Notes: generated by a model not told the origin, from the sequence alone. Positions 65-57,345 are shown, counted from the stretch's first letter. The stretch: 64,000 nucleotides of DNA from Candidatus Omnitrophota bacterium (GCA_030650425.1 JAUSED010000005.1:142932-206931); one strand, 5' to 3'. A program made the numbers and translations.

Positions 65-3000
65 TTGAGAATGCCAGAATCGGAAGAAGGCATCGGGACC
101 GCGAATTTTATTATAACCAGCCTCTCATTTTTAATACAGGAATTGGTTGGAAAAGATAAATTTGCAGGCTGCGAGTTTTTGATCCGCTTTGTTAATGAAG
201 GAGATAATTTCGCAAAAACCTTCTTTTTCGGCGAATCTTCTAATGTAGAAAACCACCGCAATCTAATAATCCGTTATTCCGCCTCGCCGCTGGCCGATGA
301 GGAAAATAGAAACGACCTTTCAATCATAAGGCATAAAGAAAGCAAGGGTCTTGTTGAAATGATTCTAATGCGGTCATTAGAAAAAGGCCTTCTAAGCAAG
401 GAGGAGGTAAGATCATTCTTTGGTTATCTGCTTGAGATCTATAAACAGATAACTCTGGAAGCTCCTAAGGTTTTCGAAGTAATCAGCCTGTTGATTGATC
501 AAGATGCTATGATTCGGAATAATATTGATGTGCTCAAGGGTAGAATTCTTGATCTGATAAAAAATGAAGTTTGGGGGATTTATGGGAGATTTCACGCGTT
601 TAAATTTTTAAAAACAATTCTTACAAAAACGAAGTTTTTAACCAAAAATAATATTCTGGGAGCAATAGACTTTGTCAATAAGATTATTCTGCAGCACGGA
701 AGTGAAGTGTATAAAGTTTTTGAATCACTTGAGGACCTTTTTATCGCGGCACAGTTCTCTACAATGTCCGGCGGTGTCCTTGATTTTGAACGCTTAGATA
801 GACTCGCGAATGTTGGAAAGAGCAAGCTTTGGAAAGTTTACGCATCCTTAGCCAAAGCGCAGATTATCCCGCAAGAAAACACTAAGGATGTTGAAAACTT
901 ATTAACCGAAGCAATCCCTAAGCATATATATATACCCGGATACCCGCCTTATGTTCCTGAAGAAGCTTATGACGCCCTGATTGAATGGCAGGAAGCAGGG
1001 GCCTTAACTACTTCTAATATAGGGAGAATTGCGCAGATATTCAGGAATGTGGGAGACAGCGCGCATCAAGCAAAGATTGACGCAGGCCAGACTGGATTAT
1101 TCTTGGGTGCTTTCGGCCGTTTACGCGCCGTTAATGCGGCGAATCTTAATGAAATTGAGCGCGTCTTTATTTATTTTATAGAACAAGACTTGCAAAGGAA
1201 AGATAAAGGCCAGCTTCTTGAAAGTATAACAAACCTTATGGATGCAATAGATAGGCTGGTGGATCGTAAAGATGTGGATAGAAGCCTTGTGATGCCTGTT
1301 TATTTCAGCCAGCTTGAAGTTGTTAAAGATATTCTATGGCTGCATAAATTTTATCGAGATGGAAAATTTGGCGGTCTATTAGTTAAAAGTATTAAGGAAT
1401 ATAAAACAGGACAGAATCCTCAGGCAGAACTTTATGAAAATGTTCAACAGGATTTAATATATAGGCTTCAAGAATCTAAGTGGGTGCCGATTGATGGATT
1501 AAAAGTTTTGACTGTGCGCAGAATATTAATGAGCAGCCGCTTGGATTATGCTTTAGATAACTTTGGGCCAATACATCAAATATATCTTAACAACGGTCTT
1601 GACGGAAGGAAGACAGGAAATTCTCTGGATGACCGAGAGATTATGCGAGCTTGGGTCAGAATTGTGGAGCTGGCTTCTTTTGGAAAAGTTGAAGGCAGCG
1701 CTTTAATTTTTCGCATTGGCGATTCGGAAAGGCTAATCGTGAATTTCGTGAACGGCCAACCGCTGGAAGCGGTATATCCGGAAACTGTTAACGCCTCATT
1801 AAATCAAGCTATTCAGCTAAGGAAGAAATTGCTGATTAAGCGATTAGCAGGGGAGAACGAAGGATTTGAAAGCACTGCCTTGACCCGTTATTTGATACAG
1901 CTTGAGTTGTTACATCTGTCCGGTATTTTAAAAGGCCGCATTTTCTACCCTTCGATGGGTAACGATTATCTGCCCGCTTATTTCGGTACAGTTTTCGCGA
2001 CCAATCTGTATTCTGGATTGGGTGAGGACCTAGAGACGTACCTTGATGGTAAGAATTACGAAAAAGGCATGTTTTTATATGATTATTCGACACTAGCTCA
2101 GATTAAAGCAGACGTGGCTTTGGAGCCGGGATTTTCTCAGACATGGCAGGAGCAAGATACGGATATCCATGTCTTCTGGAAGAATAACTTTGATTTTAAC
2201 GCGTATCTGCCGCAAGCCGCAGCAGAAGGGCCTATGGACACAATAATCATTAAAGGAGTAACCTCTTGGTTAGGGTATTACATGGAAGAAAAAGCTACCT
2301 TGGGAATGACAATTGAACAGGCTATGCAGGGATTTTTTGGGCAGCTTAAGGAGTATTTAATAAAACCCGGCACAGCCATTGTTATTCTTGATTCCGAAGA
2401 TTTATGGATAGAAGATTTTCTCAAAACAACATACGGTTATCAATCTATAAATAAACTGTCCCAATTCAGGGCATTAGCCGAAGATCTTAAGCGCATACCC
2501 GTACGAGAAGAACGCCAATATCTCGGGAGAGTCAATACGCATGTGGGGCTTGTGCCAATAAAAATTCTTATAGCACCACAGTGGGATAATGGGAATAGTT
2601 CCATTAACAAAGTTGTAGAGCAAAAAGTTTCCTCGCCGCTGCAAAGAAACCAAGACGCTTTATCTAGCCCATTATCTAACAAGAAGTTGAGCAGAGGGGA
2701 CAGCGTCCGATTCAACAGCAGTGTAGACAGTTTATCCAGCCCATTATCCAGTAGGGAGTTACAAAACACTTCCGCCGCCTCGCCGGTTTCGAGAAAGAAA
2801 GAATTACAGAGGTTACTGCGGCAAGAAATCGCATTAATCAGCATAGGCGGGGCCTTTGTGGATATATTCTTCAATCAGGACGGGTCGGTATCAGAAAAAG
2901 CAGGCGGTTGCGAAGGTAATCTTGTAGTCAACTTTACAAGGATGGATAACAGAGCAAAAGCGCTTTTGGTTAGCAATCTGGGGGCTGATAAACACGGACT

Positions 3001-6000
3001 GTTTTTACGCGATTTGTATGGAAGAATCGGCATGAATTTGGCAGGGCTCTTTTATGAAAAAGGCCTGCCCACAGGCACTGTTGAAGTGAGGCGGGAATTT
3101 GACGGTCGCGGTAATGAAATTTCCCATAGATTTGATATAGACGATGGAGCATACCCTCAGCTTTCTGTTGGGAAAATTGTTTCATTAGAAAAAGTTTTTC
3201 AGAAGGCCAAATTCTTACATTTTGGTTTAACTGCATTATTTCCTGCAACCCCTGTTGCAAAGGCGGTAAAAAAGGCTGTTGAATATGCAGAGCAATATTC
3301 TCTTCTGGTTTATTTTGACCCTAATATCAGGATTTCTTCTTGGGTTAAGATGTTCGGTACTCATGAACTGGCGGCTAAGAAAATAATCGATACAGTCAAG
3401 GATACCCTCAGGTATGCGCATATTATTAAGATAAGCGATGAAGAGTTGTTTTTCTTGAACGGAACAGAAAATAACCATAGCGGCATAGAAGAAGAGATTT
3501 TTAAGTTTGTGAGTGAATACAAGGAGTTAAAGTGGGTTCTATTGCTTGTTACCTGCGGCGAAAGGGGAAGCGAGTATGTTTTTCGCGGCAGTGGCACTGA
3601 CAACAAGAGAGAAATTGCCGCGGGCCATATTGAGGTGTATAAAAAATGGCCTTTTATAAGCGCTGTAGGCGCCGGAGATTCATTCAATGCCGCGGTAATT
3701 TCACGTTTATATCAGCTGCTTAAAGAGAAAGAGCTAAGCCGTATGACAGAAAAAGAATTGATGGATATCTTGAACTTTGCTTCTAAGGTTGCGGCTAAGG
3801 TTGTATCACAGGAAGGCGCTGTGCTTGAAAGAGAATGGAGGGGTAGGAAAACATCCAGCCCTCTTGACCTAAACGAGCTTATAAATGATCAGCTCAATGA
3901 TGTTCTGTTTAAGGCGCAAACGTTAGCAGCATCCGGAGACCATATAACTGCCCTATGGTTTTTAATGAATACGGCTAATCTCAGCATTTTAATTAACAGC
4001 TATAAGGGCAATCCGAAAAATATCGAGAGAATCAAAACCGCCCTTGAATTAGCAAAAAACTTGAAAAAAGCCCAAGAAGAAGCCAATGGGATTCTAAGCA
4101 GAGGCGCTCAGGATGCAATCAATAAAAGAATCGCCTTGAATAGAGAGCGCGTAGAAAAACTTCTGATTCCGGTTACGGATATCAAAGACATCCGTCAATA
4201 TCTACCGTATTTCGGGACATATGCCGTGGCGGGCATGCGTATCGAGAAAGTAGTGCATGTTTACGCGCCTTCTGTTATTGACGATATCAGCGCGGTAATT
4301 TTTAGATACAGGCGGCCGAAAGTCGACAAGAATATTCTTCACTACGCGATTTTTGTATTGGATAAGCCTAAAGCTCCAAGCCACCAGTTAATCGCGCGAG
4401 CTTTTGTGGAGAAGAATTATCAATACCACAACGGAGGCTCTGTTAGCACAACTACTTTTGATAAAAAAAGGAATAGGCAGAACAAAATAGAGGTTAAGTC
4501 GAGCATGGAAAAAGGAATTGCGTTGTTTGTCTATGCAATGTTTCGCTATGGAGGAGAGGTATGGTTATCAGATATTTCCCGGTCTGATTCAGCTACGCGT
4601 ATGTATCAACGTATTAAAGAACGCATCGAGGAAGATTTATACCCGGGGTTATTGATTGAGTATTTTCTTTCTCCAAGAAGGTGGCGTATAAGTATTAATT
4701 CGAATAGCGAATGGCTGCCTCCTATAATTATTACTGAGATTCCTTATTCCCCAAATGATTTAGCCAGCAGCCCAGTGGTTCAAAAAAATATAGAGATAGC
4801 AGAAAGCGCCGCCTCGCCGGCGTCCCCAATTTCTTTTGGGAATAATTCTATAAAAGTAGAAGTTAATGATTTGATTAGAGCTATAGAAACCGCTCTTGGT
4901 TTTGAGGGGGAAATTGAATTTGACGCAGTTAAGGCCGCCATTAAAAGCGCAGATAGGCTTTCTGAGTTAGGCGTATTAGCTACAGAAGCTTTGCCCGTGT
5001 TAATTAAAGCCGCGAAAGAACAGCGTTTTGACGACGATGGTGTATTTTGCCGCGACCATTTTATCGCAGCCTTAATACGGATATCTCCTGTTGAGGAAAG
5101 AGTAGAGAATTGTTTGGCAGAAATTATTTTAAGTGACCCCAATGAATATTCAAGAAGCGCAGCTGCAAGGCAGTTAGTAGAAGGGCTACAAATTCCTTTT
5201 AATAGTTTGGCGAGATCTGCTTTAGAGAAAGGCGTTCAGGAGAAAAATTGGCGGATTTCTAACCCATGCAAAAAAGCTTTAGGCTTGCGTTCCAGTTCGC
5301 CTTTCAACTCAGGCCGTGACAAGCTTAATCCGTTTGTGATACTAACAAAAAGTAAGTTACGGGAGTTATCTATAACTAACCCTATGGCTTGGCATTACTT
5401 GCAAGCTAAGCGTATTGAGGACGGAATAGATGTTTATGTGAAGAATATTAGCAAAGCACCCGAATTTGCCAAAAGGTTTAATGAAATATTCAAGGAGGTT
5501 GAAGCAAAAAAAGATGAATTGCAGAAGCTTGGGTTAAGAGAACAAATAAGCGAGATTTATGAAATAATGTTAAGGGCTTTTCCTAGGTTAGTATATGAAA
5601 AAGGCTATTGTGTGTTTACCGCGGCTGGAATGGCAAGATCCCTGAGAAATATTGGGCACAAGGATATCGCAATATACAGAATAATAGCATTAACTCAATC
5701 GTTTGTAATTAAAGAAGCTGGAGAAGAAAGCGAGTATATTTATATCGACCATAGGGCAGAGCAATTTATTATAAGAGAACCTATAATAGAATCTATAATG
5801 GAACCTAGAGGTATGAAAGAGTTGTTGTGTTTAAGTTTACCTAGTATAGATAAAATTTCCAGTTCGCCGCTGAAAGAAATAGTTGGAGCGACGGTGGTGA
5901 CGCGAGGCGCCGCCTCGCCGGTTTTGGGAAAAATAGAACTATTTCTAATTTTAAATAGATTTGATTTGAATTTCGCGAATACTACTAAAATGCTTTATAT

Positions 6001-9000
6001 TACGGGTTACAAGCGTGGATTTGTTCTTGAAGGCAGTGGCAGCGATAAGCGAGTCTACAACCGCGGCATTATATGTTCTTTTAAAACGAGCAGCAATTCT
6101 TACAATGGAGCTAGTTATATTCAGGACAGCAAATATTTTTATGAAATTAAGAATATTTTCTTCTTGGGCAGGAGTCAGTGTAGGATACACCAAGAGTTCG
6201 TATTCGGTGAGGACAGAGATACTGGCTTTAATTCTTTTATTCTCGAGCTCCTCAATAAAAGCGGTAACGCTTTTATCTCCTCGCAGGTGATCAATAATAA
6301 TATTGGTGTCGATAAGGTATCGCATAGATTAAGAGCTAATTCTTTTAAGAACACCGGTTTTCCATTCCCTGCGGATTTTATTTTCAAAGGCAATTCCTTT
6401 GGGGGCTTTACTCAAGATACCCGAGCTTCTCCTGATGAGATTAATAGTAGTAGAAATAGCGGCTTTTTTAAAAGAAAGTGGTATAGTTATCATCCACTTG
6501 ATATCTTCGATCTTTTCCTCAAGGGTTTCCAGCAATTCCATAGTTTTATTATCCATCAAATACCTCCTGCTTTAGTAACCGAGATAAATATATCACATAG
6601 GCATAAAGGAGTCAATATTTATCTAGGAAGCTGTTTCCGTCCACCTGACGCCTCCGCCGCCTCACCGGTGGCGAGTGTAGTCAGTACGCAATATGACAGT
6701 GTAGTATGGGCGGAGAAGGTGGAAGAGGTATCCGGAAATCCGGTAGAGCGCTTAGCGCAGATTATCCAGATTGCGGCGCAGAATGATATACAAGCTATAA
6801 GAACCGGGCTTATCGGGCTGCTTAATCTATTAAGAAAACACAACCGGCTCTATCGCTATCAAAGCGCAAGGCTGCTTTCCCAATTAGCTAAAATAGAGTT
6901 TTATGAGAAAATACTGCGCTCTATCGGCGGAGGAAAACTGATTGGCTTAATTCATTTGATCCCCCTTGAAGAAAGATTTGCATTTGAGGTCCCCGATTTT
7001 ATCGTTCTTCCTCCCGAGCTCAGCAAAGAAGCGGAAGAACGGATTTTTGATTTACTGGAGGAAGGCGTTTATATCTTAAGGAGCAGTTCATTCTTTGAAG
7101 ATACAGAAGGTTTTCCGATACGCGGCGCGTATGAGTCGGTATTTTTTGTCAAAAACCCCCAACAAAATGAATATCGCAAGGGATATGATTTAGAAGTTTT
7201 TAGGAACGTGAGGGTAAAAGTAAACAGAAGCTTTAGAGACTTTAAATACGCTGAAGATAGGCTATGCTTATTGTTAGAGCGGGTTCCGGGCCATACGGTG
7301 ACACTTAAGATTGGTTATGCTAATCGCAGCTGCTATTTTCCGTCGTTTTCAGGTGTTACTAAATATAATCCCTATAAACTAAGCCACATAGTATCGGAAA
7401 TAAATCCCGGTTTGAATACCCCCACGGTTAAAGGAGGATATCACCGGTTCGTCGATAAGGATACTGAAAGCGGAGAAATAAAGGTTCCAGAAGTTTCCCG
7501 GACTTTGCGGCTTTATGGGACTGGGGATGTAATAGATATTTCACGTAACAAGTTAATCAGCGCAGACATAGTGAATAACACCTTGTCATTATGGGTAGAT
7601 GATTCAGATAGTTATAAAGATACATCTTTGATTAAAGGCGTCCATGAAAAATTAAGCGCTATTATCTTGAGCTTAAAAGAAGATTCAGGCTATAGGGAAT
7701 TAGAGTGGTCGTTTGATTCCGGAAAGCTTTATGTCTATCAGAATACGCCAAGTAAAATATGCCGTTCTTTGTCAAGAATAAAGGTAGATATACCAGTTGT
7801 CCCTGAAGAGCGCCTGATTGTCTCTTGCGCCGGTGTCTTTGGCCACGGCGAATTCACCGGCCCCTTAGTTTGGGTTAAAGACAGAGATGAAATTATGTTG
7901 AAACGAGAGGAATGCAAGCGCATAGCCAGAGAGTTTCCCCGAGGGTATATTTTAATAGGCAGCCGTTATTTGTTTATGGATCCAGACATGGAATACGCAA
8001 CCAGCCAATATTTTGATTCAGCTTTAGGCAGACTCAAAGGCTGGGTAGACACAAGCGGCTTGCCGCTTTCCATTTGCGCGCATTACGCGGAGGGATTAGT
8101 TGACAAGAATATTATAGTTATTTCTCAGTCAGCTATCGATTACACTAAACTGGAGCGCTTCTGTGATCAGCAATTAAAAACCGGTATTTTCGATGATTAT
8201 TATGAGATACGTTATAGCGAGGCTTTATTCCGCATCGCCGCCAATGCTCTGCAAGATAGGGGCATACTGTATCTGGCCAGCTCTCCTGGCCCCGCCGCTT
8301 CGCCGCTTAACAACGATGATCAATTTAATGCCAACATGCCAAAATCAAGAGAAGATGGCGAATTAAAGGGGTATTTCGTCCTGGCGGTACAAAACACCAG
8401 AAATGTAGACACTTTACGTAACTCATCGACTATCAGCGAGTTATGTAACAAATACGATAAGGACAATATTACACAAACCAATACCGCCGCCTCGCCGGTT
8501 TCGGAAAATAGGAAGGGACAATTCTATCGTAACTGTTCATCGGCCATGGAGATAGACAGAAACGGTCTGAAGGATTTCGACGGGTTAAAAGTTATAGATA
8601 ATGAGGAAGGGATTTTTCTGGTTTCGAATCGTCTTGGTGTCAGAATCAAAGCTCAACGAAAGTCAATCGAATTTGAATTTATTTCCTCTCCGCTGTTGTC
8701 AACCGATGTACGCCTGCGAAGTGTACAATGGGGTAGCTCTCCGGTAGAAAATAGTAATTTTGAAAAAGCATATTTTGGTATTTTAAGAGAAATTTTCGGC
8801 AGTGAAAATAAAAAAATATGTTTCCATAGCACTGTAATCTTGGCTTTATATCTTGAAAGAAGCAGGCATAAAATAAAGATACTACCTTCCAAAGAAATTC
8901 CCCCTGTTCCTTGTTTCAGTGAGACATACAGCGAGATAAAAATAGGAGTTTTTGTAAATAAAATAACGGGTAGTTATTCTTTACAGCATTGGTTAGAATT

Positions 9001-12000
9001 TACCAGTTTAGGGAGAAGATTTTATTTAGATGCGGTCTATAATTCATTATGGGGCAATGGCCGAGACAGGATTATTTACGAAGAGATATATCCATGCTTG
9101 TTAGAAAATAAATACAGTCTTTACCCAATCCACGATATGGAAAAATTTTTACATAGCGGTGATTCTCAAATAAGAGAGCTAATGGTTGCAAAAGGAGAGG
9201 CTATATTGCGAGATGAGTGGAGGGTGTTTGGAACAGGTGAGATAGCGCTTCTAGATTTTCTGCCTCGATTATCGAACGGAGTAAATATCGCAAAAGCTGT
9301 TAGAAAGCTTATCGATGCATCTGTATCTTTGGAAGAGAATGCCAATGGTTTTATTCTAAATAAGGAAACTTACAATGCCTCGCCGCTGGCTTCTTGTAAC
9401 TTGGAAAAAATAGAGACGGTTAACTTTTTGAGTTATAGGCGAAAGATGTCTTTACGGCAGAAAGTGCTAAATGAGAATCGAGCTGCTTCACCCATGGGTA
9501 TTCCTAATAAGGTCATAACGAAAGAGCGGTTTGATGACCTCCTTAAAATTAAAAATTATGCTAATCCTCACGGTGAATATAAGAAGGTCTGGTATCCAGC
9601 TTCTGCTTCTGATGTGGGATTAGCCCTGTATGTTACTGATGGAGACAAATTTATCCTTTCAAATTTTGAGCATTTTGGAAATATGGATGATTTCAAAAAG
9701 TTTCCTGATGATGAGAAAGAAAAGCATTATTTCTTAAGGCGCACACGTAGCTGGCTTGAAGAAGTTCACTATGAAAACAGAATAAGCGCGCAGATTTTCT
9801 CTGAGTTAGAAGCGTTGGGCATAGATTACAATGATGTAGAAAAGTCAAAGATTAATGATGCCACTTTTAAATTGGTATTTAATTGGCGGCATCCTTTAGG
9901 CAATAGAACTAAGGAAAGAGTTATCGAATATAGAAATATACCCGTTCAAAGGCCGCCGTATTATCCGGAAGAGAAAGTAGATATCATAATAATTAAAGCA
10001 TTAAACGGATTCAATTTAGATCCAGAGGGCCTGTTTTTTATTTTAAATCCAGATGGGCTTATAATCAGCGATTTCTGTTTCAGCGATGTTTGGTATGAAA
10101 GAGTAAAAAATAGTCCTATTGCATTGAAGCTTAACAATAAATTTGGGTATAGTGCTAGGCATATCTGGTGGGCATTAGGAGAGGCGATTGAACTAGCAAG
10201 AGGCGAGGATGTATTTTTGTACAAGAACACCCCCGCCGCCTCGCCGGTTTCGGATGAAATAGGAGGACAGCCCCGTAGTAAGAGCAATTTTGACAATGAA
10301 TTTGCAGGGGCTGACCCTAAAGCTTTTTCAGGAGTAGTTATTTATGCGGGAGGATTATTTTCTTTTATAAGAGAGGACGGCGAAAAGGTCCACCGCAATA
10401 ATAATAAAAGCAATAATATAAAGAAGTGTCCAGTTATCCATAATGGGTTATTTCTTTCCCTTGATTACCCGGAGGAATATAACAAGGGCCAAGAGCCCCG
10501 CCAGGATATAGAAAGCCAGAAAGTTCATCGTTATTCTTTTCCCAATCCTACAAGAAATGTAAGCCATGGGATTTTACCCGAAGCAGTCGGGACAAATACG
10601 CCTACCACTAAGGACCCAAGCAATATCTTTGCTCCGTCCAGAAAGAAGTCAGATAGAGTGTCTCATTCTTGGCCAGATAACATACACCCCTATTCTATTG
10701 TCTTCAGGAATTTTGTCAAGAGTTTCCCCTTACGGAAATCCGCCGCCTCGCCGGTGGAAAATCGATATACGGATACATGGCTCAATGGATTACCTCTATT
10801 GCAGATCTTGGGAATCTTTGGAGGGATTAAGCGGCAACCGTTCTACTTCGATATGAAGGGCCGTATCGTACAGGCATACGGATGGGATGGCTTGCTAGAT
10901 GCTGTCTTGACGGCTAGGGATTCAGGGGGCGATACGTCCAGATACATAGAGAATAATGACTATATCAAATATATTGACTATTTAATCAGAGAAAGCCGCT
11001 GGGATACAAGCGCCGCTGATAATTTTAGCAAGTTACTGTTGAGTATAAAGGGCGAAGACGCATTCATAACTTTTAGTCAGGAAGTTCTGTCGGGGCTTTT
11101 GACGATAGTGGAAAAACATATTGAGGCCTATGTTGAAAGTCGTCATCTTTTCCGCGCACCGCAGGAGACCGTGGTCCAGCGGCCGGAATCTTATCGTACG
11201 GTGAAAAATATTTATAGAACGGAAACAGTTTCCTTCACAGAATGGAAACAGCTTTCATCTCTTTTGATGGCGGTATCAGAATCTAATCGTATTGGCGCGC
11301 TTATCCTATTGCTCGGGAACCAATGGGCGGCTAATTCCGCCTCGCCGGTGACGCTTGATGAAAGAAGAAACGTATTATTCCTTATCCCTATGGAGATGAT
11401 ACGCAGTGCTGGTAATAATAAGGAGGTTTCCGTTAAGTTGGGCTGGCCGTATGGACTTAAGGGCTTCCAGCAATACTCTATGTACTTTATCCATGGTTTC
11501 GGGAGTAATCCGCAAGATAATAATACCAGTATGATTTCCCAGTGGATAGAGCGCAATATTGGAAAAGTCCCGGTCTCGCGTAAGCAAAACAGCCTTGCGG
11601 GATTTGGCGATTGCTATAACCCTGCCATTAACCGCTTCAGCTTGTTTCAGTTCTTTGAGAGTAACGCAGTCAAAGCCTGCTTTGCGCAGCAGGTTTTCGG
11701 TTTCTTTCCAGACACAATGGTCAAGCAGGAACATAAGATTACAGGTTTAATGGGAATGTTGAAGTTCCTCCGCGAAATGAATTTCTTCTTCATCGAGGAA
11801 TTGATTGGCAAAGGCTATGCAGGCAAATATGTCTTCTACTTTCAGATCAGGATAGAATTTGTCAGAACAGATATCTTTAGGGGAATATCCGCTAGCCAAA
11901 AGCTCCATAACCATAGAAACAGCTATACGGGTGCCCTTAATATGGGGTTTACCATGGAGTACGTGTGGATCAATAGAAATTCTTTCCAGCAACCTTTTGT

Positions 12001-15000
12001 TCATCGATTAATTCTCCTGTTAGTAGTATTTAACATCTTTGGTAAGGAAAGTCAAGGTGAATTTATAATTAAACGCGAAGATCCGGAAGGCCCGGGGGAT
12101 CTACAGGATCTGGATCCGGGGGCATATGACTTAATTCTAAATAAGTATCGTGTCTCCGGAATTGCCACCTCTTGGGGATTAAGAGATATCCGAAGCGCAG
12201 ACATTATACAAGATATCTATTATGCATTAAAAATAATAGAAGATTTAGGCCGTAGATTAGGGTTATCAGGCAAGATGATTGATGGGGCACATAAGGTTTT
12301 TGCGCAAGTAATCTTTGCAGCCAGCCCGTTGGCCGCCGCCTCGCCGTCCTCGAGCCGTGTCTTAAGAGATGGCTCGAGGACCCCGAGCGAAGTGAGGGGG
12401 CAGGTGGATGAAAATCAGGCTAGCTCGCCGGTTAGAGAAGAGGAAGCTGCTGTCAGACTAGAAATTGCCAAAAAGCTTTGTCATAGCTTAAATAACGCTG
12501 TCAGTGGTTTTTATGCTTGGTTAACTTATTTGGAGCGGAAAACCCCTCATTTTGATAGAGGAAAAGGAAATACCCTTCTTGGGAAGATTAACGATTACAA
12601 TGAGCTGGTAAGCGAATCGGAGGAATTACTACAAAATCCGGATAAATTAAAGGAAACAGTTAATAAATTGGATACCCTAGTAAACGAAATTATAGAAATA
12701 TTGCCCAAGTTACGTAACTTTTATGATAACCAGGAGTTAACAGGAAGCATTGCATTAATTGGAGAAATAATTTCGGATGAATTACCAGAAAAACCGGTAA
12801 ATTTAAGCGAGGTTTTGCCCTGGATATTTCGCAGCGGGACGTTTTATCATGATTTTATGATAATAGATTACAAAAACTGCCTTGGGAAAGACGCATTTGT
12901 TTTTGTCAGCAAAGATAAACTATGGATTGTATTCGATAATTTATTGATGAATTCCATACAGGCTTTCCAGAAGTTTGATGTTATAAATAAAGAAGATAGA
13001 AGGGTTACGGTGGAGTTGGGTGAAGAAAGAGATTATTATACGGTTGTTTATTCCGATAACGGCCCGGGGATACCCGAAGATTTATTAAGCAACATCTTTG
13101 ATCCCTACGTAACAACTAAGGTCGGAGAACCCATATCGGGGTTGGGGCTTGCCATATGTAAGGAGATAGTCGCTAAGGCAAACGGCAGCATTACTGTAAA
13201 AAGCAAACAAGGGGAGGGCGCTACTTTTACTGTTTATCTGCCTAAAGAAACAAATGTTTTCGGAAAAGAAGGCGCCGCCTCGCCGCTGGCTGGTGAAGAA
13301 AATATAGGCCGGGAATTACAAGAGGCATTTGATAAAGCCGCATTGGATTTATTGTATTGGTTTTGCGGCATTAAATATCTTCCTTATGATTGGAAAATTC
13401 GTGCTTATATAAGGCCTTTAAGGCGAGGGGATTTACAGTTTTTGCTTGAAGAAAACTTCCCTACATTACTTTTTGATTTAAGGATAAATTGGTTTGAAGA
13501 AGTGATTGGCTATCGTCTTTACCCGGAAAGCGCAGGAATAAGAGAAAAAGAGATTATGCGGGGATTAAGAAAAGAGGTTTTTGATTGGTTCTTAAATAAT
13601 AGGCCGGCTGTTTTGGAAGAAGAGTTTGAAGGAATAAAAATAAAAGAATTTATTGAAGCGGCTATGACATCGACAGAGCAGCATTTACAATACTTAGGCC
13701 AAATGCTTGAGTTTATCAAAGGAGGCAAGCGGCAATCATTCGCTCCTTTTATGCAAAAAACGTTTAAAGAATTTCTTGAGAGAAGGATTAAAATTCTTAG
13801 ATGCCTGCGTCATATTGATCCAGCGTTTGTAATACACAAACTGCCTTTGTATGAGGAAAGAGTTAAAGAGATAGAAAATGAAGATATTGAGAGCGAATTA
13901 GAAGAGGCAAGAAAAGCGGGCAAAGAGGTTAAGGTTATAATAAAAGAAATCGCCAGGTATGAAGATACAGGCAGGCCATCTAGTCTTAGGGTTGAATATG
14001 AAGGCGAGATTGGCTTTGTGCGCATAAGAAACAGCGGTTTTAGCTCCTGGGCGCTTTCTCAACACCCTAAAGCTATTATTGGGGAAGAGGTTTACGCAAG
14101 GGTAATTGCTGTTAGGCCGCTTGAGTTTGGATTAATCAAAGAAAAAATCGATATTCCAAGAGTAGATACGAGGATTGTTTACAGGACAGACGCGGCTGGA
14201 ACAGGAGATAATAGGTTTAAGGAAGCCTTTAATAAGGCCGCGGAACAAAAAGCCAAAAAAGCTAAAAAAGGCCCATCCTCGGGTTCTCCGCTTGAGGAAG
14301 AATTCAATTTTTTGCGGCTACCGGTTAAACAAATAACAAATAAATGGCTGGAGTATATAAGAACAAGTTTTAGTGAAGACGAAGCCGCAAGTTCAAAGAT
14401 GAAGGGCGCGCTTAATGATTTAATTCAGCAGCTCGAAGCTTTAGGCGCAGAGCCTTTTGATAAGACAACAGAAGTAAGTATAGGTGATTTATATATAGAT
14501 ACCCTCTCCGGCACTATTACAAAAATAACAGATGTGAGAATAGGGCTTACCTGCGAGACGGATAGAATATACCCTATGCGCAAAGAGAAAAGAGAGCTGG
14601 CTATGACGGGTGGTAAGTTCTTATTAAGAAGAAGCGGTGTTTCTAGAGAGCAGGCAGAGTTAGCCTATCGGTCTCAAAGAGCAGAGAAAATTATCAAGGA
14701 TATCGAATTCGCTGTAGCAGTTAGTAACCACAAAATGGCTGTCGATTTTATAGAGGAATTAAGAAGGGATTATTCTGATATTGTTAGCTGTGCTAAATTA
14801 TCTGAACTGGATAGGAAAGTCGGCACTGTTCATCCAGACACACCTACTCCCGCTGCGCACAAGGCTTCTTCGTCAATTAAGAACAGCCTTACACTTTACA
14901 CATTAAACATTGCACAAACCATTCCCGTCGCCTCGCCGGTAGCGAAAATAAGATTGCTGGGAGATTATCCTTTAGCTAAAAATTCTTCCGGCAGCATTGT

Positions 15001-18000
15001 TTCGGTTAATCTTGAGGCAATTTTTAAGAATTTGGTATCGCGGGTAATCAGAATCGTGCCTGGTGAGGATAAAGCCAATGAAAGTAATATGGTATCAAAT
15101 GGGTCTAATGGATATTCTTCTTGTAATTTATTAGCCCGCAACAACTCGATTTCATCGGGGATTAGCACTTCAAGGAGCTCAGTTAGTTTATTGGCATCTT
15201 TGTTAATCTCTTTGGCAGGGTATTCTTTCTTGCGGCGGAGTAGAAACCTTATTTCTAATAGCGTAGTTAAAGAAATACAGCCTTTGATTTCCTTTGTTTC
15301 GACGCGGTTGATAATTTCAAAAGGGGCCTTCCAGAGATTCTTATTAGTAGCGGTTTCTGTTTCTTTGAGCAGCCAGTTAGCAATGACATCCGTATCAAGC
15401 AATACCGTTTTAATCTCTTTCATTGGGTTGGCAATAAATTTATTTTACCTTACCGCAGAGACTAAGGCGTTGGCCTTTGATAAAACCAGTGGAGGTTTTT
15501 CCTGCAGGAATAACCCCCTTGTACTTACCAAGCAATTCTCCAGCGGTGTTCGTCTTGCTAATTTTGGAAGTTTGCGCTTCCGTTCCCAGTACCCTCAGAG
15601 CTTCTCTCAGTGTAGTCATATCTCATCACCTCTAACAAAGGTTAACATAATCTCAAGACGCCGTCAAGATAATTCCGCCGCCGCCTCGCCGGTTTCAAAA
15701 GAAGCAGAAACAACTAAAACATTACTTTCCTTCCCAATTGCCGACTTGGATAAAGTTTTAAAGCTGGGCATAAAGTTGTTTGATTTTGGGTGTGGGCCTA
15801 TTGCCGGATGCCGCGGAGAATGGGGTTCTACTATTGTAAAACATTATCCCTATATAAACTATTATGGTATAGATGCGCAATTTTGTCTTGAGCGGCAATT
15901 GCGCCTGCCTTTTAGAAGACTCTTAAGTCTATTGGGAATACGCTTGGCAAGAGAGAGGATGAAATTTGAAATACAGTCCTATTTTGAACCGTTGCCGCAA
16001 GAATGGGGTAAGGCCGACATTATCATCTTAAATTCTCCTGAAATCACAGAGGATTATTTGGCGCGTATTAATAAGGGAGAGGTGGCGAAGGCGTTCTTTA
16101 AAAATCTCAAAGAAGGGGGAATAGGTTTGATTCTTTTTGAATCACATCTTTATTCATCGATAAATTCACTAATTACATATATATCTAGAGAGGCTGTGGC
16201 AGGCGGCCGAATGTATAAATCTTTCTCTATGGAATTTGGCGAAGAGAACATTAACCAAACAAATATCCCTAAGAATTACTATCCTGAGAAATTGACTGCC
16301 TATAGAAATTGGCAATTTGCCCAGAGAAATAACCGTCCTGATTTTGAGATTAGTTTTATCCAGGTTAGGAAATCGCTAGTAAATGGTAACGCTCCCCAAA
16401 GGGACACCTCTGCTACTCAAGGCGCCGCCTGCACTGAGCGAGCGCAAGCGAGTCGAGGCGCCTCGCCGCTAGTCTTGGAAGATAAGGTAAATGAAGAGTT
16501 AATAATATTATACGTGTTAAAAGATGAAGTATCGTCGCTTAGCGATAAACAAAAATATAACTTCGTTAAAAACAGGCTTTCCCTTGAGAAGAGAATAAGT
16601 TTATCTATCCCCGCCGCCTCGCCGGTGCAAGACAAAAACAGAATGTTATATGGAGGAAAACAGGCAAATTTATTAGGTCAGAAATATCTTGAAGGTATTT
16701 CCTTAGGCGAAGGCGTTACCATTGAAGTTATGGCTGCCGAAGAAGAGAATATTTTTACAACCGATGATTTTATAGATTTTCTTGTATTTAACAACGAATT
16801 AGTCAGTCAGATAGAGCATGTTTTGAAAGAATCCGGCAAGATTATGGAAGAAGAAATTCAAGGTTTGTTGTCGCAATTCGAGTTTCCTAAATCGCTCGAA
16901 GAGAAAGCGAATATTATCCAAAGCCATTTTGCTAAAGATGTTCTGCTTCTTGCCCGCGGTTCAGGGCAGAAAGAGGGCTCCAAAGAAGCAAGCCGCTCAG
17001 GAGTTTCTTTAAGTAAAAAAATTGACACTGAAACCTCTCTTTTTGAAGTCCTCCAGGAAATCTATCTACACGAACTAAAACAGGTATATCTTAAAGAGAG
17101 GCAGTCAATTTTGAAAAATCTTCTGGCGGTGACAGTTGTGCCGTACATAGATTTTGATTGCGGCATCATTGGCTCTTATTCCAAGAAAGATAACTCAACG
17201 ATTATTGATGTTGTCGTTGGCTCTTTAGAGACGGCCGTAGACCCCGCGAAACTGGGTTTAACCACTAACGAACGCCAGGTGCACGCCACAGCCCTGACTA
17301 TCAAGGTTCAAGATGGCAGGATTTTTGTTGCTAAAGAATATAACCTTAGGCCGCAGGAGATTATATATAAAGGTAAACACTATTTTCGCGAAAAGGCGAC
17401 CAAAGAGATATGGGAAGCAATGACAGATGTAATAGATGCAGAAAACGTGAAATGTATTCGCTGCCCGTTAAATAAAGACGAAATTTTAACCATTGATAAG
17501 CTAACGCGCCTGGCGGCTGAAGAATCCGATGCAGATATTTTATGGGAAATAGGCAAGATCGGCCGTATCCACGAACCTGCTTATGAGCTTTATATCCTTC
17601 AGGCAGATCCTTTAGTGCCTGTCGGATTTTATCAGCCTATCCCTGATAATTTAGAAAACATTATGGCGCGAAGTTATATTTCCCACGGTAATATACGCCT
17701 TGAGCGGGCAGTTGTGATGCTGGTAGAGGCGGGAGCTAAGGCAAGTTTTGTGGAAGCGGCCGCAGAAATCTTGGCTGAGGCAAGGATTCCTTTTATTAAA
17801 GTTCAGCGTCAGGCAGCCTGCCTTGATTTAAGCTTAGCGCACCGGGCAGCCGTAGAATGGGCAAATGTTTTGATTGATCCTGCGGCGCCATCCAAGTGGC
17901 CGCATACGCAGGTAAATTTGAGGGATTTTATTCGTGAGCATAATCATTCATTGTTTTTTGCCGATGGCAGGGTTTCCCAATTGGCTTTTGCCGGCGGCAG

Positions 18001-21000
18001 GGCTTTTCAGGAGCCGCTTCGGCGCTTAAACTATTGGCGGTTCGGAGGTGGCGTCTATCTAAGCGAAGAGTTGGTCGGTTTTATAGCTAATGACAGAGAA
18101 GCGATTATGTTCGGCCCAGCGCAGGATAAGAAGGTAACGGATTGTTATAGCAGAAACGGCCTTAGCCATTATTTTGGCAGCCATATTACCTTTTTAAGCT
18201 ATTTATTTGATGACGAGCTTAGAAATGGCTTTCTTTCTTTTGAGCCTACGGACAAAGAGCAAATGGATATAGTTTTTGGATACGCGATGGATTATTTGCT
18301 GCAAAGGTGCAAGAAAAGAGAGCCTCTTATGCCGGCATTGGAAGAATTACTTTCTAAGATACGGTTTGAGGAAAAGCAGAGGCTTAAAGAGGCAGGCGGT
18401 TATTATTCCTCCTGGGATAAAGAAAAAATACAAACCCTCATTGCAGAACATCCGCAGGCAGAAGCGCAATTATCCGCGTTAAAAGAAGAGATCAATTGGC
18501 TTAGGCGTCTTATTGCCCTTCCATTTTATCCAAATTACAGCCAGAGCCATATTACCAGAGCAGTGTTAAAGATTTTTGATGGCACCCGCGGTTTTGAGTG
18601 GAGATTTGGCGAAGAAATACAAGAAGCACATCCAAGGCCGCAAGGGCCGTTGAGGATTTTAATTGTTGATAGAACCCTTATAACGAGTCTCTACCTTAAG
18701 TCTTTTATTGAGGCGAATTTTAGTAAAGCAACAGTTGAAGCAATATATAATTGTTATGACGCGGCTGAAAAAATACCGTTTTTTGTACCGGATATTATCA
18801 TCTTAGATGGTAGGACCTCACACGATGATTATGGGCACGAATTAATGAGGAAGTATAACCAATTATCAAACGCGCCGCGGCTGATTTTAATTAGCGCCTG
18901 GGGTTTAGGCGACCTCTACCATGATACACAAGAATTGCGGAACGCTTATGCAAAAATACAGGTCTTAGGTTTTTACTCCCGCAGTGAAAACGAAGAAAAA
19001 ATTATCCCCTGGTTTAAACAAGTAGAAGATGAGATCAAACCAGCAAAAGAAGAAAGCCAAACCGCTGAAAAGAAGAAAGTAACTATATCTAAGGTGCTTT
19101 TTATTCATTATTCTAGCGAATTATTGAGAAATATTAGACTATATACTAAAAAGGCGCCTTTTGAAATCCTGACAGCTGATACAGAGGTAATGGCGGTTGG
19201 CATGATTAAAAAGCATCGTCCTGATATATTAGTCTATGACGTTAATTTTACACTTGAATCCCAAGCGCCTATAATCGGAGAATATATTAGGGTAAAAGGA
19301 GAAAGCGCTTATGTGATTCCTTGGTCAGCTGCGGAGTATTCCTTGAATGAAATCCGTCAGAGGCCAGGATGGAAAAAAATATGCGCACAGATAAAATTCC
19401 TTGATCCTGTGGTGATAAATTCAGATGCCGCGTTTTCGCGCTCCGGAGAAGGCGTAGATTATGTTATGGATGAAATCTTTAGGATAGTTTCAGGCCTGAC
19501 CGGGATTTCATCCAGCCCCTTAGCCAGCCCCGCCGCCTCGCCGGTCAGAGAAGAGGAAGCTGCTGTCAGATTAGAAATTGCCAAAAAGCTTTGTCATAGT
19601 TTAAATAACGCCGCCAGTGGTTTTTATGCTTGGTTAACTTATTTGGAGCGGAAAACCCCTCATTTTGATAGAGGAAAAGGAGATACCCTTCTTGGGAAGA
19701 TTAACGATTACAATGAGCTGGTAAGCGAATCGGAGGAATTACTACAAAATCCGGATAAATTAAAAGAAACAGTTAATAAATTGGATACCCTAGTAAACGA
19801 AATTAAAGAAATATTGCCCAAGCTACGTAACTTTTATGATAGTCAGGAGTTACTAGGGAGCATTGTATTAATTGGAGAAATAATTTCGGATGAATTACCA
19901 GAAAAACCGGTAAATTTAAGCGAGGTTTTGCCTTGGATATTTCGCAGCGGGACCTACTATCATGATTTTATGAAAATAGATTACAAAAACTGCCTTGGGA
20001 AAGACGCATTTGTTTTTGTCAGCAAAGATAAACTCTGGATTGTATTCGATAATTTATTGATGAATTCCATACAGGCTTTCCGAAAGTTTCATACTCTAAA
20101 GAAGGAAGATAGAAGGGTTACGGTGGAGCTGGGTGAAGAGAGAGATTATTATACGGTTGTTTATTCCGATAACGGCCCGGGGATACCCGAAGATTTATTA
20201 AGCAATATCTTTGATCCCTACGTAACAACTAAGGTCGGCGAACCCATATCGGGGTTGGGGCTTGCCATATGTAAGGAGATAGTCGTTAAGGCAAACGGCA
20301 GCATTACTGTAAAAAGCAAACAAGGGGAGGGCGCTACTTTTACTGTTTATCTGCCTAAAGAAACAAATGTTTTCGGAAAAGAAGGCGCCGCCTCGCCGCT
20401 GGCTGGCGAAGAAAATATAGGCCGGGAATTACAAGAGGCATTTGATAAAGCCGCGGAACAAAAAGCCAAAAAACCTAAAAAAGGCCCATCCTCGGGTTCT
20501 CCTATAGAAGATATCACCGCCTCCCCAAGAGGCGGAGCGGATAAATCCCCAAGAATTCTTGATCCTGACTATAAAAAATCTTCGCGTTTTATTGAAATCG
20601 ACCCGGAATATTTTCTGCCTGACACTCAATCCGGATTTTGGCTAATCGGGAAAAATGCTAAAGACATTTTTACAACTTGCACCGATATTGTATTCTTAAC
20701 TAAAGAAGAAAGAATATTCCTCGCTCATCTTCAGATTAATCCCAAACACCTTGAGAGCACAAACGAAAGGCAAAGCAAAGAACTGTTAGAGCGGCTGGTA
20801 GAGGACTGGAAAACCTATGGAGATAAGGACGAAAAAGGCCAAGGAGTCAGCACTTTTAATCCTCGAGAAATATTTAACGCGACAACTAAAGCGCTGTTAC
20901 TGAATAAATATCCCGCAAGAGAACCTTTTACTAATTGTTTAAGAGATTTTTTATTAGAGAAGGGGCTGGGTAAAGATAATATAAAAATAGATTTTGCAGC

Positions 21001-24000
21001 GCATCCAGCTGAGGATACGCAGATAGAATCTGTCAGTGTTTACCTGTGGCCTAAAGATAGACTTATAGAGACTGCCTTTGGCATATATGATTTACATTCT
21101 CCCGAGAGAAATAAGATTTTTGAGGTACATCGCTATCTTCGCGCCGAATTTAACTATCCGATTGTCTACGATTTACGCAATAATATTACAGCCGGCCCCG
21201 CCGCCTCGCCGGTGGATTCGAATGAAAAATCACTCTCGCCATTATATAAATCCTTCATTACCATTAATAAAGGAAAGTTAGAGAAACTCTCGGATTTACT
21301 TATTCAGCCAGATAAAGATATGCGGGATTTTGCGTTTGCCGCGCTTAAACTCTGCAAGAGAATGCCTAAAGAAGCCAAAGATATAATTAAAGAAGTAATC
21401 ACCAAAGTCCGCTTTGAGCAAATGATTGAGTTCTTTATGAAAGAGCCATCCGAATATGCCTTTAATTGCATTAAGTTATTTATAGATTTAAACCCCGCAG
21501 CAGCCCGTGAAAGTATCGGTAAAAAACACCTTTTAGAATTTATATCAATGATTAAAAGAAGGCATCCTGCCTGGATAATTTTATATAGATGTCTTGTGGA
21601 GTCTGGAAGATTAAATCCTGTTGAAATTGACGAAGAGGTCTTAAGAAATTTAATGAATTTAGAGGAAATGCCAAAAGAGCCTCTAAGCGGAGTAATACAA
21701 TATTCTATTCTAATAGCAGTTGAAGATTGCCTTAAATTATTTTCTTCTTTAAATAAGAGCGCTGTGACTCATAACCTTTTAGGGGAATTATTTTCTAGAG
21801 TGTCACCGGTTAATTTAATAGAAGAGCCTGATAAAGCAGCGCGCGCTGAAAATTTTCTTAAAATACTAGCGCCTTTCAATATTGAAAGCGCAAAATCATT
21901 TATTACGGGTCCGCTTCTAGAAAAGATGGCGAAATTGCGTAGAGGGCCTTTTAGGTTTTTTATCTCCATTAACCCTCAAGCAATCACCAAAAGTGTTGTG
22001 GTTGTTTTAGAATCTTACTTTGATCCTAAATACAATGATCATTCTGGCGCAATATCACTCTTATCTAAAGCTCACGCCTTGAATCCTGATGTGTGCAAAA
22101 AGGTTATTAAGGAAGATCTCTTAATACAACTGATGCGCCTGTTTTTTCAGAAAACACACATTTTTTCTTTAAGATACGCTTCTCTTATTAGAGAGTTAAC
22201 AAAATCCCTAAAATTAGAAGTCAAAAATATAACCGTGGTTTCCGATTTTCTTGGTGGGCTTTTGGAACTGTTATTGCGTCAGCTTAGCGGAGTAGGCGGG
22301 ACAGGTTACAAATATGATACAGAGAAAATTATTTCTTATATTAAGTTTTTTGCTCCTCTTTATCCAGAAGCAGTGGCTGACTTAAACCCTAAAGATAAGA
22401 CTATTAAATACCTTAAGGGGTGGCGTCGTATTCTTAATATAGATGAGGCGTATGAATTTCGCATTCTTAAGATTATAGAAGAAACTTTCGGCAGTACATG
22501 GCAGCCTGTTTTTAGAAAGGTAAAAGTAAATTGGTGGAATGGAGAGAAAGTTATACAACCAAAAGCTGGTAAAGCGCCTACAATTTCCTTTGAAGTTAAT
22601 GTAGACAAAGAAAATGTGACTGCGCCAAGCAAGCAATTAAAGGCTAGATTATGGGCCTGTGATAATAGTAAGCAAGAGCCAGTATGGCGTTTCTATAATG
22701 GCCGCCAGACAGATTTTACAGGGCAAGACACAGCTAAATTTGAAGTTTTACTCCCCAGAGGTTTTTTTGGAGAAGGGACAATGCAATATAGCACGGACAG
22801 CGGTAAAACCTGGCATTGGGCTAATATGGGCTTTGGCGACAACCTTACAGTATTACCAGCGCCTTCCGCCGCCTCGCCGGTTGCTAAAATAGCTTACAGC
22901 ATAAAGCATGTATCACATAAAAACTTCCTTCTTCTAAATCCAACATTATTGATTATTGCTGGTTTATTGCCATTAATCGCATTGCCCCTCCTTAATACAG
23001 GAATAATTGCGGTTATAATATCCGCAGGACTAACATTCCTAGGAGCTACAATCTTATCTTATTGGGTCATAAGACTATTCTTCTATCGGGGCTTAAGCCT
23101 CTCAACGAAGAAAATATTTTTATTAATATTTAGAATAGTTCAAATTTTTGAGATTGTATTTGGAATTAATCTATTGGCAATCATCGTATTGAATCTTTTG
23201 GGGATTAGATCCCCAAGATCTATTATCTTTTCAGAACTCTATCATTGGACATATGCCATCTTGACTTTTTACGAAATAGTTAACCATTACATTTATAGAG
23301 GATTAGGTAGTACTTTTAAATTTTATAATGACCTTTGGAATAATATCATAAGATTATTCCTTAAAGATAAGATTGATTTTAGTAAACCGGTAGGGGGTGC
23401 GATTGGAATTCAATTAAATAAGTTAAAAAGAGTGTTAGATATGGGAAAAGATTCTCAATCAAAAGAGCACAGTAACTCAAGTCCATTGGCTGTAACCTTT
23501 AGTCAGCTCAGAGCCCATAGTTCAGAATTCATAGATACGAGACTATCAACTATGAACAATGAAGAATTAGCTAAACATGCCGCCTCGCCGGTTTCGGGGT
23601 TCCTTGTATTGTTAGATGATAAGCAAGCCCGTTGCTTAGCAGATGAAGTGAATAGGACTTTAGGGGGAAATATTTTATCTTGGTGTCAGTCAGTAATAAT
23701 GGATGACTATTTTTGTGAGTTTGAATCCGGCCAACGTATATCTACGGATAATAAAGTGTCACAGGTTATTCGTTTTGGGCCATTGGTATTTGTTGTGATT
23801 TCTAGGACGCCCTCTAAAATAATAAATAATCTTTTGAAACAAGATATTGCTGAACTTAAAAAAAGGCTGGGAAAGGTTTATTCAGAGAATAAAACAAATA
23901 TTTTCTTTATAACTCCGTCTTACTATGACGTGTCGCCGTTGAGTAAATTTACTATGCCGGTTATCGCTGCTATGTTTAATTACAGGAATGAATTCAAGGA

Positions 24001-36192: not shown

Positions 36193-36284
36193 TGCGAGCA
36201 GGAAAAGGTGACAGTCACGGAGAAAAGGTAACAGTCACGAAATACGTGACTGTTACCTTTTCTTCACCTTTCCTGGCTCGCGAT
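36193..36284. repeat. Nested palindromic element containing AAAAGGTAACAGTCACG-AAATAC-GTGACTGTTACCTTTT (perfect 17-bp stem) plus an outer GCGAGCAGGAAAAGGTGA/TCACCTTTCCTGGCTCGC stem
   Basis: Intergenic. Related to the element at 54557-54595. Probable terminator or REP-like element. Confidence 0.7.
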
Positions 36285-46526: not shown

Positions 46527-46630
46527 ATAGGGACCGTTTCTATTTTTTCATAATAGGGGACACTTTCCTACACGCGTTTACTATCTGCTGGAAAGTGTCC
46601 CCTGAAAGAAGAAAAATAGAACCGTCCCCT
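46527..46630. repeat. Nested palindromic element: outer GGGACCGTTTCTATTTTT/AAAAATAGAACCGTCCCC around inner GGGGACACTTTCC/GGAAAGTGTCCCC
   Basis: Member of the GGGGACACTTTCC family. Fills the apgM-mnmG intergenic space. Confidence 0.7.
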
Positions 46631-54554: not shown

Positions 54555-54556
54555 AG

Positions 54557-54595
54557 AAAAGGTGACAGTCACGAATTTCGTGACTGTCACCTTTT
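54557..54595. repeat. Perfect palindrome AAAAGGTGACAGTCACGAA-t-TTCGTGACTGTCACCTTTT between amt and glnK
   Basis: 19-bp arms. Same family as 36224-36262. Confidence 0.75.
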
Positions 54596-54609
54596 CCAGG
54601 GGAGGAAAG

Positions 54610-57296: not shown

Positions 57297-57345
57297 AAGG
57301 GGACACTTTCCAACAAGTAGTTAACGCTCGTAGGAAAATGTCCCC
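57297..57345. repeat. Palindromic element AAGGGGACACTTTCC-21 nt loop-GGAAAATGTCCCCT
   Basis: Immediately 3' of the glnN stop. Loop shared with the copy at 28211-28257. Confidence 0.7.

Follow-up and report, generated by a model that had tools for sequence, protein, structure and literature searches.

A two-module block, composed of a sensor-less histidine-kinase core and a 340-amino-acid (aa) module with a WFCG motif that follows it, was probably copied at junction sequences within a giant open reading frame (ORF) of a Candidatus Omnitrophota bacterium, and one of the two copies probably lost 900 nt of the second module afterwards. We put the probability of this history, which we reconstructed from sequence comparisons, at about two in three. 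The giant ORF lies on the + strand at positions 65-28369 of the 64,000-nt stretch analysed here (GCA_030650425.1, JAUSED010000005.1:142932-206931), referred to below as the window. It comprises at least 9,434 codons arranged as about 30 gene-sized modules, and its frame has the highest codon-usage score in nearly every one of them. The junctions between the modules are marked by a short peptide motif, [AS][AS]SP[VL], whose commonest form is also conserved as a DNA core.

The duplicated sequences, copy A at 12424-13341 and copy B at 19537-20454, align over 918 nt with 96.2% identity, 35 substitutions and no indel in both global alignment and blastn, and they constitute the strongest self-match of the window. 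An earlier note, made from the sequence alone, had described copies of about 97% identity with point differences only and had placed the start of copy B at 19541. The lack of indels is borne out, but the identity is lower than described and copy B starts at 19537 (codon boundary at 19535). The same note let both copies begin immediately after a junction core. The left end does lie at a junction, but the identity already begins within the core, at its 3' nine bases (CTCGCCGGT), and the bases just upstream are unrelated (GGCTAG in copy A and CCGCCG in copy B). The junction before copy A (QASSPV, 12419-12432) has a core that is degenerate in its 5' half (GCTAGCTCGCCGGT) and contains the first identical base at 12424, while copy B is preceded by a canonical core (CCGCCGCCTCGCCGGT; SSSPLASPAASPV) at 19530-19545. 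The two neighbourhoods are indeed different, as had been recognised: according to Pfam, copy A follows an antisense toxin-antitoxin (TA) module (DUF5615/DUF433), and copy B follows a double receiver (REC) module with Response_reg stretches.

All parts of the block are read on the + strand. In copy A, the kinase module (12424-13276) is separated by an AASPL junction core (GCCGCCTCGCCGCT, 13274-13287) from the second module, which begins with the N-terminus SPLAGEENIGRELQEAFDKAA (13277-13341), continues with a 900-nt body found in copy A only (13342-14241), and passes into a Lys-rich linker (EQKAKKAKKGPSSGSP, 14242-14297) that ends in the junction-like SSGSP and forms the right end of the block. 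In copy B, the kinase module (19537-20389) is followed by a remnant at 20387-20510, in which the AASPL core and the first 18 residues of the second module are fused to its last 19 residues, the Lys-rich linker ending in SSGSP, at what would be the deletion junction. The shared linker, EQKAKK[A/P]KKGPSSGSP, had been pointed out before and is present in both copies (14242-14297 vs 20455-20510; 56 nt, about 92% identical); the homology stops directly after it, at ...GGTTCTCC. Because SSGSP[LI] resembles an SSPL junction with two additional residues, the right end of the block would also lie at a junction-like motif. The kinases are a genuine paralogous pair, as the note had claimed, but the copied unit consists of two modules, the kinase and the module following it, rather than of the kinase module by itself.

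The 285-aa kinase module contains the H-box CHSLNNAVSGF of a DHp domain and a HATPase_c domain, which is detected in both copies (PF02518; 83 bits, E 2e-23, against a cut-off of 26.4). The ATP-binding boxes DNGPGI, FDPYVTTK and GLGLAICKEIV are intact in both copies, and the module matches the structures of ZraS, CckA and WalK, with ZraS/AtoS-type matches as well. The DHp assignment is weaker: phmmer aligns IAKKLCHSLNNAVSGF with LAAGVAHEIRNPLSSI of ZraS at 8 bits, with the His in register, and Pfam HisKA is not detected. The module contains no sensor, transmembrane or PAS domain, no initiating or internal Met start, and no ribosome-binding site, and it begins five residues before the DHp domain, right after the junction. 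Since the module has no start of its own, the kinase can be made only as part of a long polypeptide.

The two kinase copies differ by 19 synonymous and 18 non-synonymous changes, giving a rate of synonymous change (dS) of 0.10, a rate of non-synonymous change (dN) of 0.025 and a dN/dS of 0.24. This ratio, which the earlier note had proposed to compute, indicates purifying selection, and a binomial test against neutrality gives P = 5e-5. These values indicate that both copies have been translated and constrained since their divergence, and, because a constrained kinase without its own start codon requires it, that the long frame is translated. The constraint is looser than that on the flanking housekeeping genes (dN/dS 0.01-0.1). 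The description of the duplication as recent holds in a relative sense only, as its dS of 0.10 amounts to about a quarter to a third of the dS of 0.30-0.47 that separates the window from a related contig, L015, described below. About a quarter of all differences between the copies falls in one patch just past the kinase N-box (12968-12989 vs 20081-20102), where eight substitutions within 22 nt result in QKFDVINK vs RKFHTLKK. This patch could stem from a loop under relaxed constraint, from diversifying selection or from conversion over a short tract.

A second line of evidence for a long frame under selection comes from the antisense TA genes embedded in it. On the - strand, the giant ORF overlaps DUF5615 (11375-11734, E 1.7e-19) and DUF433 (11747-12004, E 4e-22), which make up the module upstream of copy A, two PIN genes (5951-6325 and 14965-15423), and an unannotated ORF for a putative antitoxin (6329-6559); the Pfam E-values of the antisense TA genes range from 1e-12 to 4e-22. 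Codon alignment with the + frame is seen in four of these five genes, and all four lack TTA, CTA and TCA, although TTA is used here more often than any other Leu codon. When their synonymous codons were resampled, the chance of encountering no + strand stop was 0.0012, 0.014, 0.0002 and 0.009 for the four genes. Because four antisense genes avoid these codons at such low chance, the continuity of the long frame itself would be under selection, and the + frame appears to be kept open by it, a view that fits the dN/dS of the kinase copies. When looked up by exact match, the antisense PIN protein and the DUF5615 protein were both missing from the record.

The difference between the two copies concerns the second module. 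The segment present in copy A is exactly 900 nt long and in frame, and it lies between imperfect 20-bp direct repeats, as described previously: the left repeat (GAGGCATTTGATAAAGCCGC) is found at 13322-13341, the last 20 nt of the N-terminal part, and again at 20435-20454 in copy B, and the right repeat (GAAGCCTTTAATAAGGCCGC) occupies 14222-14241, the last 20 nt of the segment itself. The two repeats are identical at 16 of 20 positions. The segment has no Pfam match and, in answer to the earlier suggestion that it might have paralogues elsewhere, none in the window. A phmmer search with the 300-aa segment against 1.84 billion representative sequences found two distant relatives, P0122 (E 1.6e-25, 40% identity) and one module of the giant protein P0123 (5,327 aa), which is encoded in another metagenome-assembled genome (MAG; L013). 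P0122 is encoded on a 1.2-kb metagenome contig from a different sample (L014; JGI Ga0129287_10106469, 498-1190), where its short ORF stands alone and has a stop codon of its own, and it is preceded by ...ASSSPLEKIV, an SSPL-type motif as in the window.

These homologues speak to the direction of the change. The BLASTP alignments to P0122 and P0123 start 17 residues before the point at which the segment had been supposed to be inserted: AGEENIGRELQEAFDKAALDLLYWFCG aligns with AGEE---PELEPEFNKAVSNLVLWFCG of P0123, directly after a junction of that protein (RSPAP|AGEE), and the alignment runs contiguously from AGEE...EFNKA into the WFCG body in P0123 and P0122. The C-terminal part (25% identity to P0123) and the Lys-rich tail also keep their order. 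The left repeat (AGEENIGRELQEAFDKAA) corresponds to the helix with which the 300-aa module natively begins in both relatives, and the module starts at the AASPL junction at 13277. Because the alignments to P0123 and P0122 span the left repeat and continue into the body, copy A would have the native arrangement, with the kinase followed by the full second module. Copy B probably arose by an internal deletion of 900 nt between the repeats, from an ancestral unit composed of the kinase and the second module. Four of the 20 positions differ between the repeats, three by synonymous changes, compared with 3.8% between the copies (P = 0.006), so they would be older than the split between copies A and B and not a fresh target-site duplication. 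Weak similarity also reaches about 50 nt upstream of the repeats (z about 3.3). An AlphaFold2 model of the second module, calculated with no alignment, had a mean predicted local distance difference test (pLDDT) score of 38 and was unusable.

The earlier note had proposed the opposite, namely an in-frame insertion of 900 nt into copy A; in such a history, the kinase and a short linker would have been copied first, and the insertion would have created or used the repeats later. The exact length, the preserved frame, the flanking direct repeats and the lack of a paralogue in the window could suit an insertion, as could the 3' linker being more diverged (8%) than the kinase (3.8%), a difference that is not significant (P = 0.10). 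A B-like ancestor, however, would need to carry the left repeat and the 11 residues preceding it, which align to the module N-terminus in P0123 and P0122, by chance. The repeats are 20% diverged, mostly at synonymous positions, hence not identical, and neither inverted repeats, terminal or otherwise, nor a transposase domain mark the segment, whose homologue is an ordinary protein module. We therefore regard the insertion as rather unlikely, and favour the copying of the complete two-module block followed by the loss of 900 nt from copy B.

The boundaries of this block acquire their meaning from the junction motif. The peptide [AS][AS]SP[VL] has 25 strict matches in the giant ORF, where 0.09 would be expected from composition, and none in the 10,893 aa of 24 neighbouring genes. 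AASPV, the commonest form, is almost always encoded by GCCGCCTCGCCGGT. This core, 14-16 nt long in the form (CC)GCCGCCTCGCCGGT, occurs in 13 exact copies and seven with one mismatch, 20 in total vs 0.01 expected, all of them on the + strand, in frame and within the giant ORF; the conservation is limited to about 16 nt, and the flanks are not conserved. The SSP[LV] variants use varied Ser, Pro and Leu codons, including AGC as well as TCN, and GCC, TCG and CCG are not the dominant codons of the genome. Because the codons of SSP[LV] vary while those of AASPV are nearly invariant, the junction seems to be conserved as a peptide and, in the AASPV form, also as DNA. The copy pair tops the self-matches of the window and the 20 cores exceed expectation so widely that chance similarity is excluded.

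Along the giant ORF, the usual order is a module, SSPL, a short spacer, AASPV and the next module. One 62-nt spacer encodes SSP[LV]-xxIVGATVV-xxG-xxSPV and occurs at 5861-5922 and 28097-28158, the latter at the very end of the array, and a segment of about 90 aa ending in ...EFxSSPL...SSPV recurs with 44% aa identity (8546-8755 vs 27912-28119), again with one copy at the array end. These recurrences hint that the array has a conserved terminus or that an older duplication took place inside it. A hairpin or attC-like structure at the core was considered and ruled out, as the approximately 16 nt are conserved alone and have no inverted partner. The reverse complement of the core is found nowhere in the window. 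In viral contigs, the 16-nt core gave single matches per contig, as by chance, and no arrays; a literature search for 'AASPV' returned mosquito protease names alone.

Junctions coincide with homology boundaries elsewhere, too. L015 (GCA_041643315.1, JBGGGV010002803.1), a contig from a related Omnitrophota MAG that we reached via a protein clustering with PilZ at 90% identity, carries flanking genes with 88% nucleotide identity to the window. Within the giant ORF, the homology to L015 starts at TCGCCGGT of the last junction (VSSPV, TCCTCGCCGGTG, 28148-28160 on the + strand; homology from window position 28151, with window 28148-28263 matching L015 506-618), and upstream of it the modules are unrelated, L015 having a 168-aa module of its own there. 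The contig L015 itself starts at another SPV junction. The 62-nt unit shared by 5861-5922 and 28097-28158 has junction motifs at both ends. Among more distant giant proteins, the WFCG module begins right after a junction in both P0123 and the window, and a methyltransferase module common to the window and P0001 (L001; 6,777 aa, Candidatus Omnitrophica) begins about ten residues after [KR][ST]ELR in P0001 and after AASPV here. Since cores make up roughly 1% of the giant ORF, repeated homology boundaries at cores would not be expected by chance. Taken from sequence comparison, L015, the 62-nt unit and the distant giant ORFs support junctions as breakpoints, and they suggest that giant genes are rearranged module by module at the junction. 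The proposal that modules are copied as junction-bounded units, already made in the earlier note, gains from this agreement and from the junction motifs at both ends of the duplicated block. As for the motifs of the distant proteins, [KR][ST]ELR of P0001 has varied codons, while (E/A)AKPxA[PT]xxE of P0123 has partly conserved GC-rich DNA; in P0123, moreover, SDSDQSSAAKPPATAERTDSAGLALKGPS occurs twice without change, at residues 4342 and 4791.

Module turnover between related genomes also raises the question of whether any duplication took place within this genome, as two related blocks could have been acquired separately from a shared module pool. Turnover at junctions, as seen with L015, the differing contexts of the WFCG module in P0123 and L014, and a divergence of 3.8%, which is within strain-level variation, would all agree with separate acquisition. 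Yet none of the collections searched contains another source of the kinase module, and both copies share the idiosyncratic linker and the internal AASPL core with identical codons. Separate acquisition thus seems unlikely to us, and copying within the giant ORF the better account.

For this copying, we propose that the block, i.e., the sensor-less kinase core with the 340-aa WFCG-motif module, would have been copied by recombination at junction sequences, with the left breakpoint inside the core at CTCGCCGGT and the right breakpoint at the junction-like SSGSP, so that the copies now stand after the antisense TA module and the double-receiver module, respectively. The recombination might have been a homology- or microhomology-driven exchange, or a site-specific activity. 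The dispersed duplicate could have formed by copy-and-paste of the block, or by unequal exchange in which the core near 12.42 kb recombined with the one near 19.53 kb and the redundant modules were then lost from junction to junction. Both kinase copies would then have been kept under purifying selection within the giant frame. Copy B would finally have lost 900 nt in frame between the diverged 20-bp repeats, most likely by slippage or by a microhomology deletion at their shared GCCGC end, so that the two ends of its second module now form a short linker. The comparison directly shows how the sequences are related, where the breakpoints lie, the signature of selection and the match of the left repeat with the native start of the module; how the recombination worked, which way the block was copied and the polarity of the deletion are inferred.

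Several findings weigh against this history. Close relatives of the kinase module are absent from a set of 5.8 billion proteins, from the GTDB species genomes and from the JGI metagenomes; the best matches in these collections are generic kinases of at most 46% identity over the ATPase domain only, and therefore provide no outgroup for polarity. The polarity of the deletion accordingly depends on distant homologues with 28-40% identity, with no outgroup containing the exact two-module block. The SSGSP motif at the right end is junction-like and not a canonical core. Exact runs shared by the two repeats do not exceed 5 nt, which is short for slippage. A recombining agent is not apparent either, as Pfam and NCBIfam detect neither a recombinase nor a peptidase in the window. 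Moreover, the substitutions are unevenly distributed, at 5.0% in the first 601 nt vs 1.6% in the last 317 nt (P = 0.01), which could mean partial gene conversion instead of one clean event.

Two further explanations were considered. The copies might be older paralogues that gene conversion has kept alike, and the heterogeneous divergence as well as the dense patch of eight changes at 12968-12989 could be read in this manner. A conversion tract, however, would need to end exactly at the core and at SSGSP, and there is no homology of lower identity beyond either end. We consider this explanation quite improbable. Still more improbable is an assembly artefact, either a chimeric join of strain variants or a mis-resolved repeat. 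The sequence comes from a MAG, its 96% identity between copies is similar to strain divergence, and the locus seems hard to assemble, given that an independent Logan assembly of SRR13727527 (L012) breaks at 28295 in the ORF tail and that L015 starts at a junction. In contrast, both copies have unique flanks on both sides, a preserved frame, boundaries at the junction motif, a clean in-frame difference of 900 nt and an excess of synonymous changes (dN/dS of 0.24) that diverging functional paralogues or alleles would be expected to have. A core of 14-16 nt is also shorter than the usual k-mers of assemblers, so that false joins at cores should be unlikely. The copying of the two-module block at junctions, with a later deletion in copy B, remains the account we prefer.

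The setting of the block within the giant ORF can be summarised as follows. No stop occurs in its frame back to position 2, and the ORF probably continues 5' of the window, to judge from the open sequence there. We considered whether the open frame could be a mere by-product of base composition, which is ruled out by the 6-87 stops per module in the other five frames. Pfam and NCBIfam matches in the giant ORF comprise PfkB, HATPase_c (twice), Response_reg, HD and a PrmA-like methyltransferase, the rest being unannotated. The PfkB kinase module (2777-3853) is complete. The two REC domains (18656-19510, + strand) form the end of a 965-aa module directly upstream of copy B, with two Response_reg stretches in 18500-19510 at 33.5 bits, over the Pfam cut-off. 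One module (22871-23476) is visibly hydrophobic when read from the translation; the N-terminus of the ORF lies outside the window. At E <= 0.01, the Pfam and NCBIfam matches include no peptidase, RTX or secretion-related family, an absence that is not proven because most modules are unannotated, and no recombinase was found in the giant ORF or among the 24 genes downstream of it by the same libraries, the upstream side lying outside the window. Scans of the window with Rfam and for tRNAs gave no match, and promoter and terminator counts at 11-22 kb did not exceed those of shuffled sequence.

The remaining 36 kb downstream is ordinary chromosome, with genes for PilZ, a sugar ABC transporter, glycosidases, ROK, LacI, RNR, MnmG, GreA, GS and GOGAT. 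Three proteins of the window have 100% identical counterparts in Candidatus Omnitrophota bacterium, on a 338-kb contig, namely MnmG (MDO8662105.1), RNR (MDO8662103.1) and PilZ (MDO8662092.1). A 4,919-aa piece of the giant-ORF product had no self-match in the protein collection, though the neighbouring proteins (MDO8662092.1 onwards) are in NCBI; the giant ORF may lack an annotation or be marked as a pseudogene in public databases. Short repeats of 42-50 nt with 86-94% identity occur at 28210-28256, 57298-57344 and, inverted, 46554-46603, and another pair is formed by 36222-36263 and 54555-54596 (inverted). Outside the giant ORF these repeats are intergenic; one of the copies falls within the final 160 nt of the ORF, a stretch with a negative coding score, so that the tail of the giant ORF may represent read-through into an intergenic element resembling a repetitive extragenic palindromic sequence. 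An unannotated gene for a 388-aa protein (34995-36161) contains a tandem duplication of about 460 nt (35145-35599 vs 35697-36151, 66% identity).

A wider and more tentative hypothesis, which we consider possible but doubtful, would treat the entire 28-kb ORF as a translationally fused cassette array driven by recombination. In such an array, the 14-16-nt core, read as AASPV, would serve both as a DNA breakpoint for the gain, loss, replacement and copying of modules and as a peptide linker or processing site, the importance of frame continuity would have led to the removal from the antisense TA genes of codons that give stops on the opposite strand, and the kinase duplication would be a dated snapshot of the process. 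By analogy with viral polyproteins or MARTX toxins, the junction may also be a cleavage site. The locus as such predicts that recombination breakpoints cluster at the core, and peptide termini may map to SP|V/L.

Known systems share individual features with this array. Chromosomal integrons are long arrays of gene-sized units, mostly of unknown function, that carry oriented short sites, TA units of which some are reversed, and cassette duplications, and they turn over rapidly. The giant ORF is similar in its oriented sites, obscure cargo, TA units and fast turnover, but the window contains no IntI, the core has no attC structure and does not occur on the minus strand, and the units are fused in one frame. 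MARTX toxins and polyvalent proteins are long polypeptides with variable enzymatic modules, whose repertoires vary between strains by recombination and which are probably released by cleavage in the linkers. The module array of the giant ORF is alike, except that no protease, RTX or secretion domain was detected in it; its linker is a fixed pentapeptide whose DNA is also conserved. In polymorphic toxin loci, a short motif together with conserved DNA marks the point of module swapping, as in CdiA-CT after VENN and the Rhs tips after PxxxxDPxGL. The giant ORF shares the principle of a motif at the swap point, but it has dozens of internal junctions, another motif and mostly enzymes of cytoplasmic type, whereas in polymorphic toxin loci each protein has a single variable tip, accompanied by orphan cassettes and cognate immunity genes. 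Regarding the general mechanism of deletion between direct repeats, copy B fits in lacking exactly the inter-repeat sequence, in frame, while retaining one repeat, and departs from it in that the repeats are imperfect.

A likeness is also found within the phylum itself. Omnitrophota are already known for giant ORFs (Seymour et al. 2023, PMC10066038; West-Roberts et al. 2023, bioRxiv 10.1101/2023.11.21.568195). In a 2026 preprint (10.64898/2026.06.07.730766), those whose single polypeptide is tiled by many Pfams are set apart as a 'multi-enzyme' class, and repeated Pfams are described as usual (65% of long proteins). The giant ORF comes from the same phylum and is tiled by many Pfams with none dominating, so that it fits this class, for which a repeated kinase domain is in itself expected. 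A signal peptide and/or transmembrane helices are reported for 94% of the multi-enzyme giant ORF proteins. West-Roberts et al. state that the cleavage points are unknown (bioRxiv 10.1101/2023.11.21.568195). In a term search, none of the three publications (PMC10066038, 10.1101/2023.11.21.568195 and 10.64898/2026.06.07.730766) mentioned junction or linker motifs, breakpoints located at them, junction-bounded copying or antisense genes in frame. Giant ORFs are common in Omnitrophota and have been published as poorly conserved and functionally obscure; the window adds a duplication and a module replacement between relatives, both resolved at the base level and at the same core. If general, copying at junctions would explain the length and variability of giant genes, and it would offer a practical guide to dividing them into units that can be expressed and have their structures predicted. 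The giant ORF shares with the multi-enzyme ORFs of its phylum a length of more than 9,000 codons, diverse domains and poor conservation across genomes, and it differs from them in its explicit module boundaries and in one duplication that can be resolved to the base.

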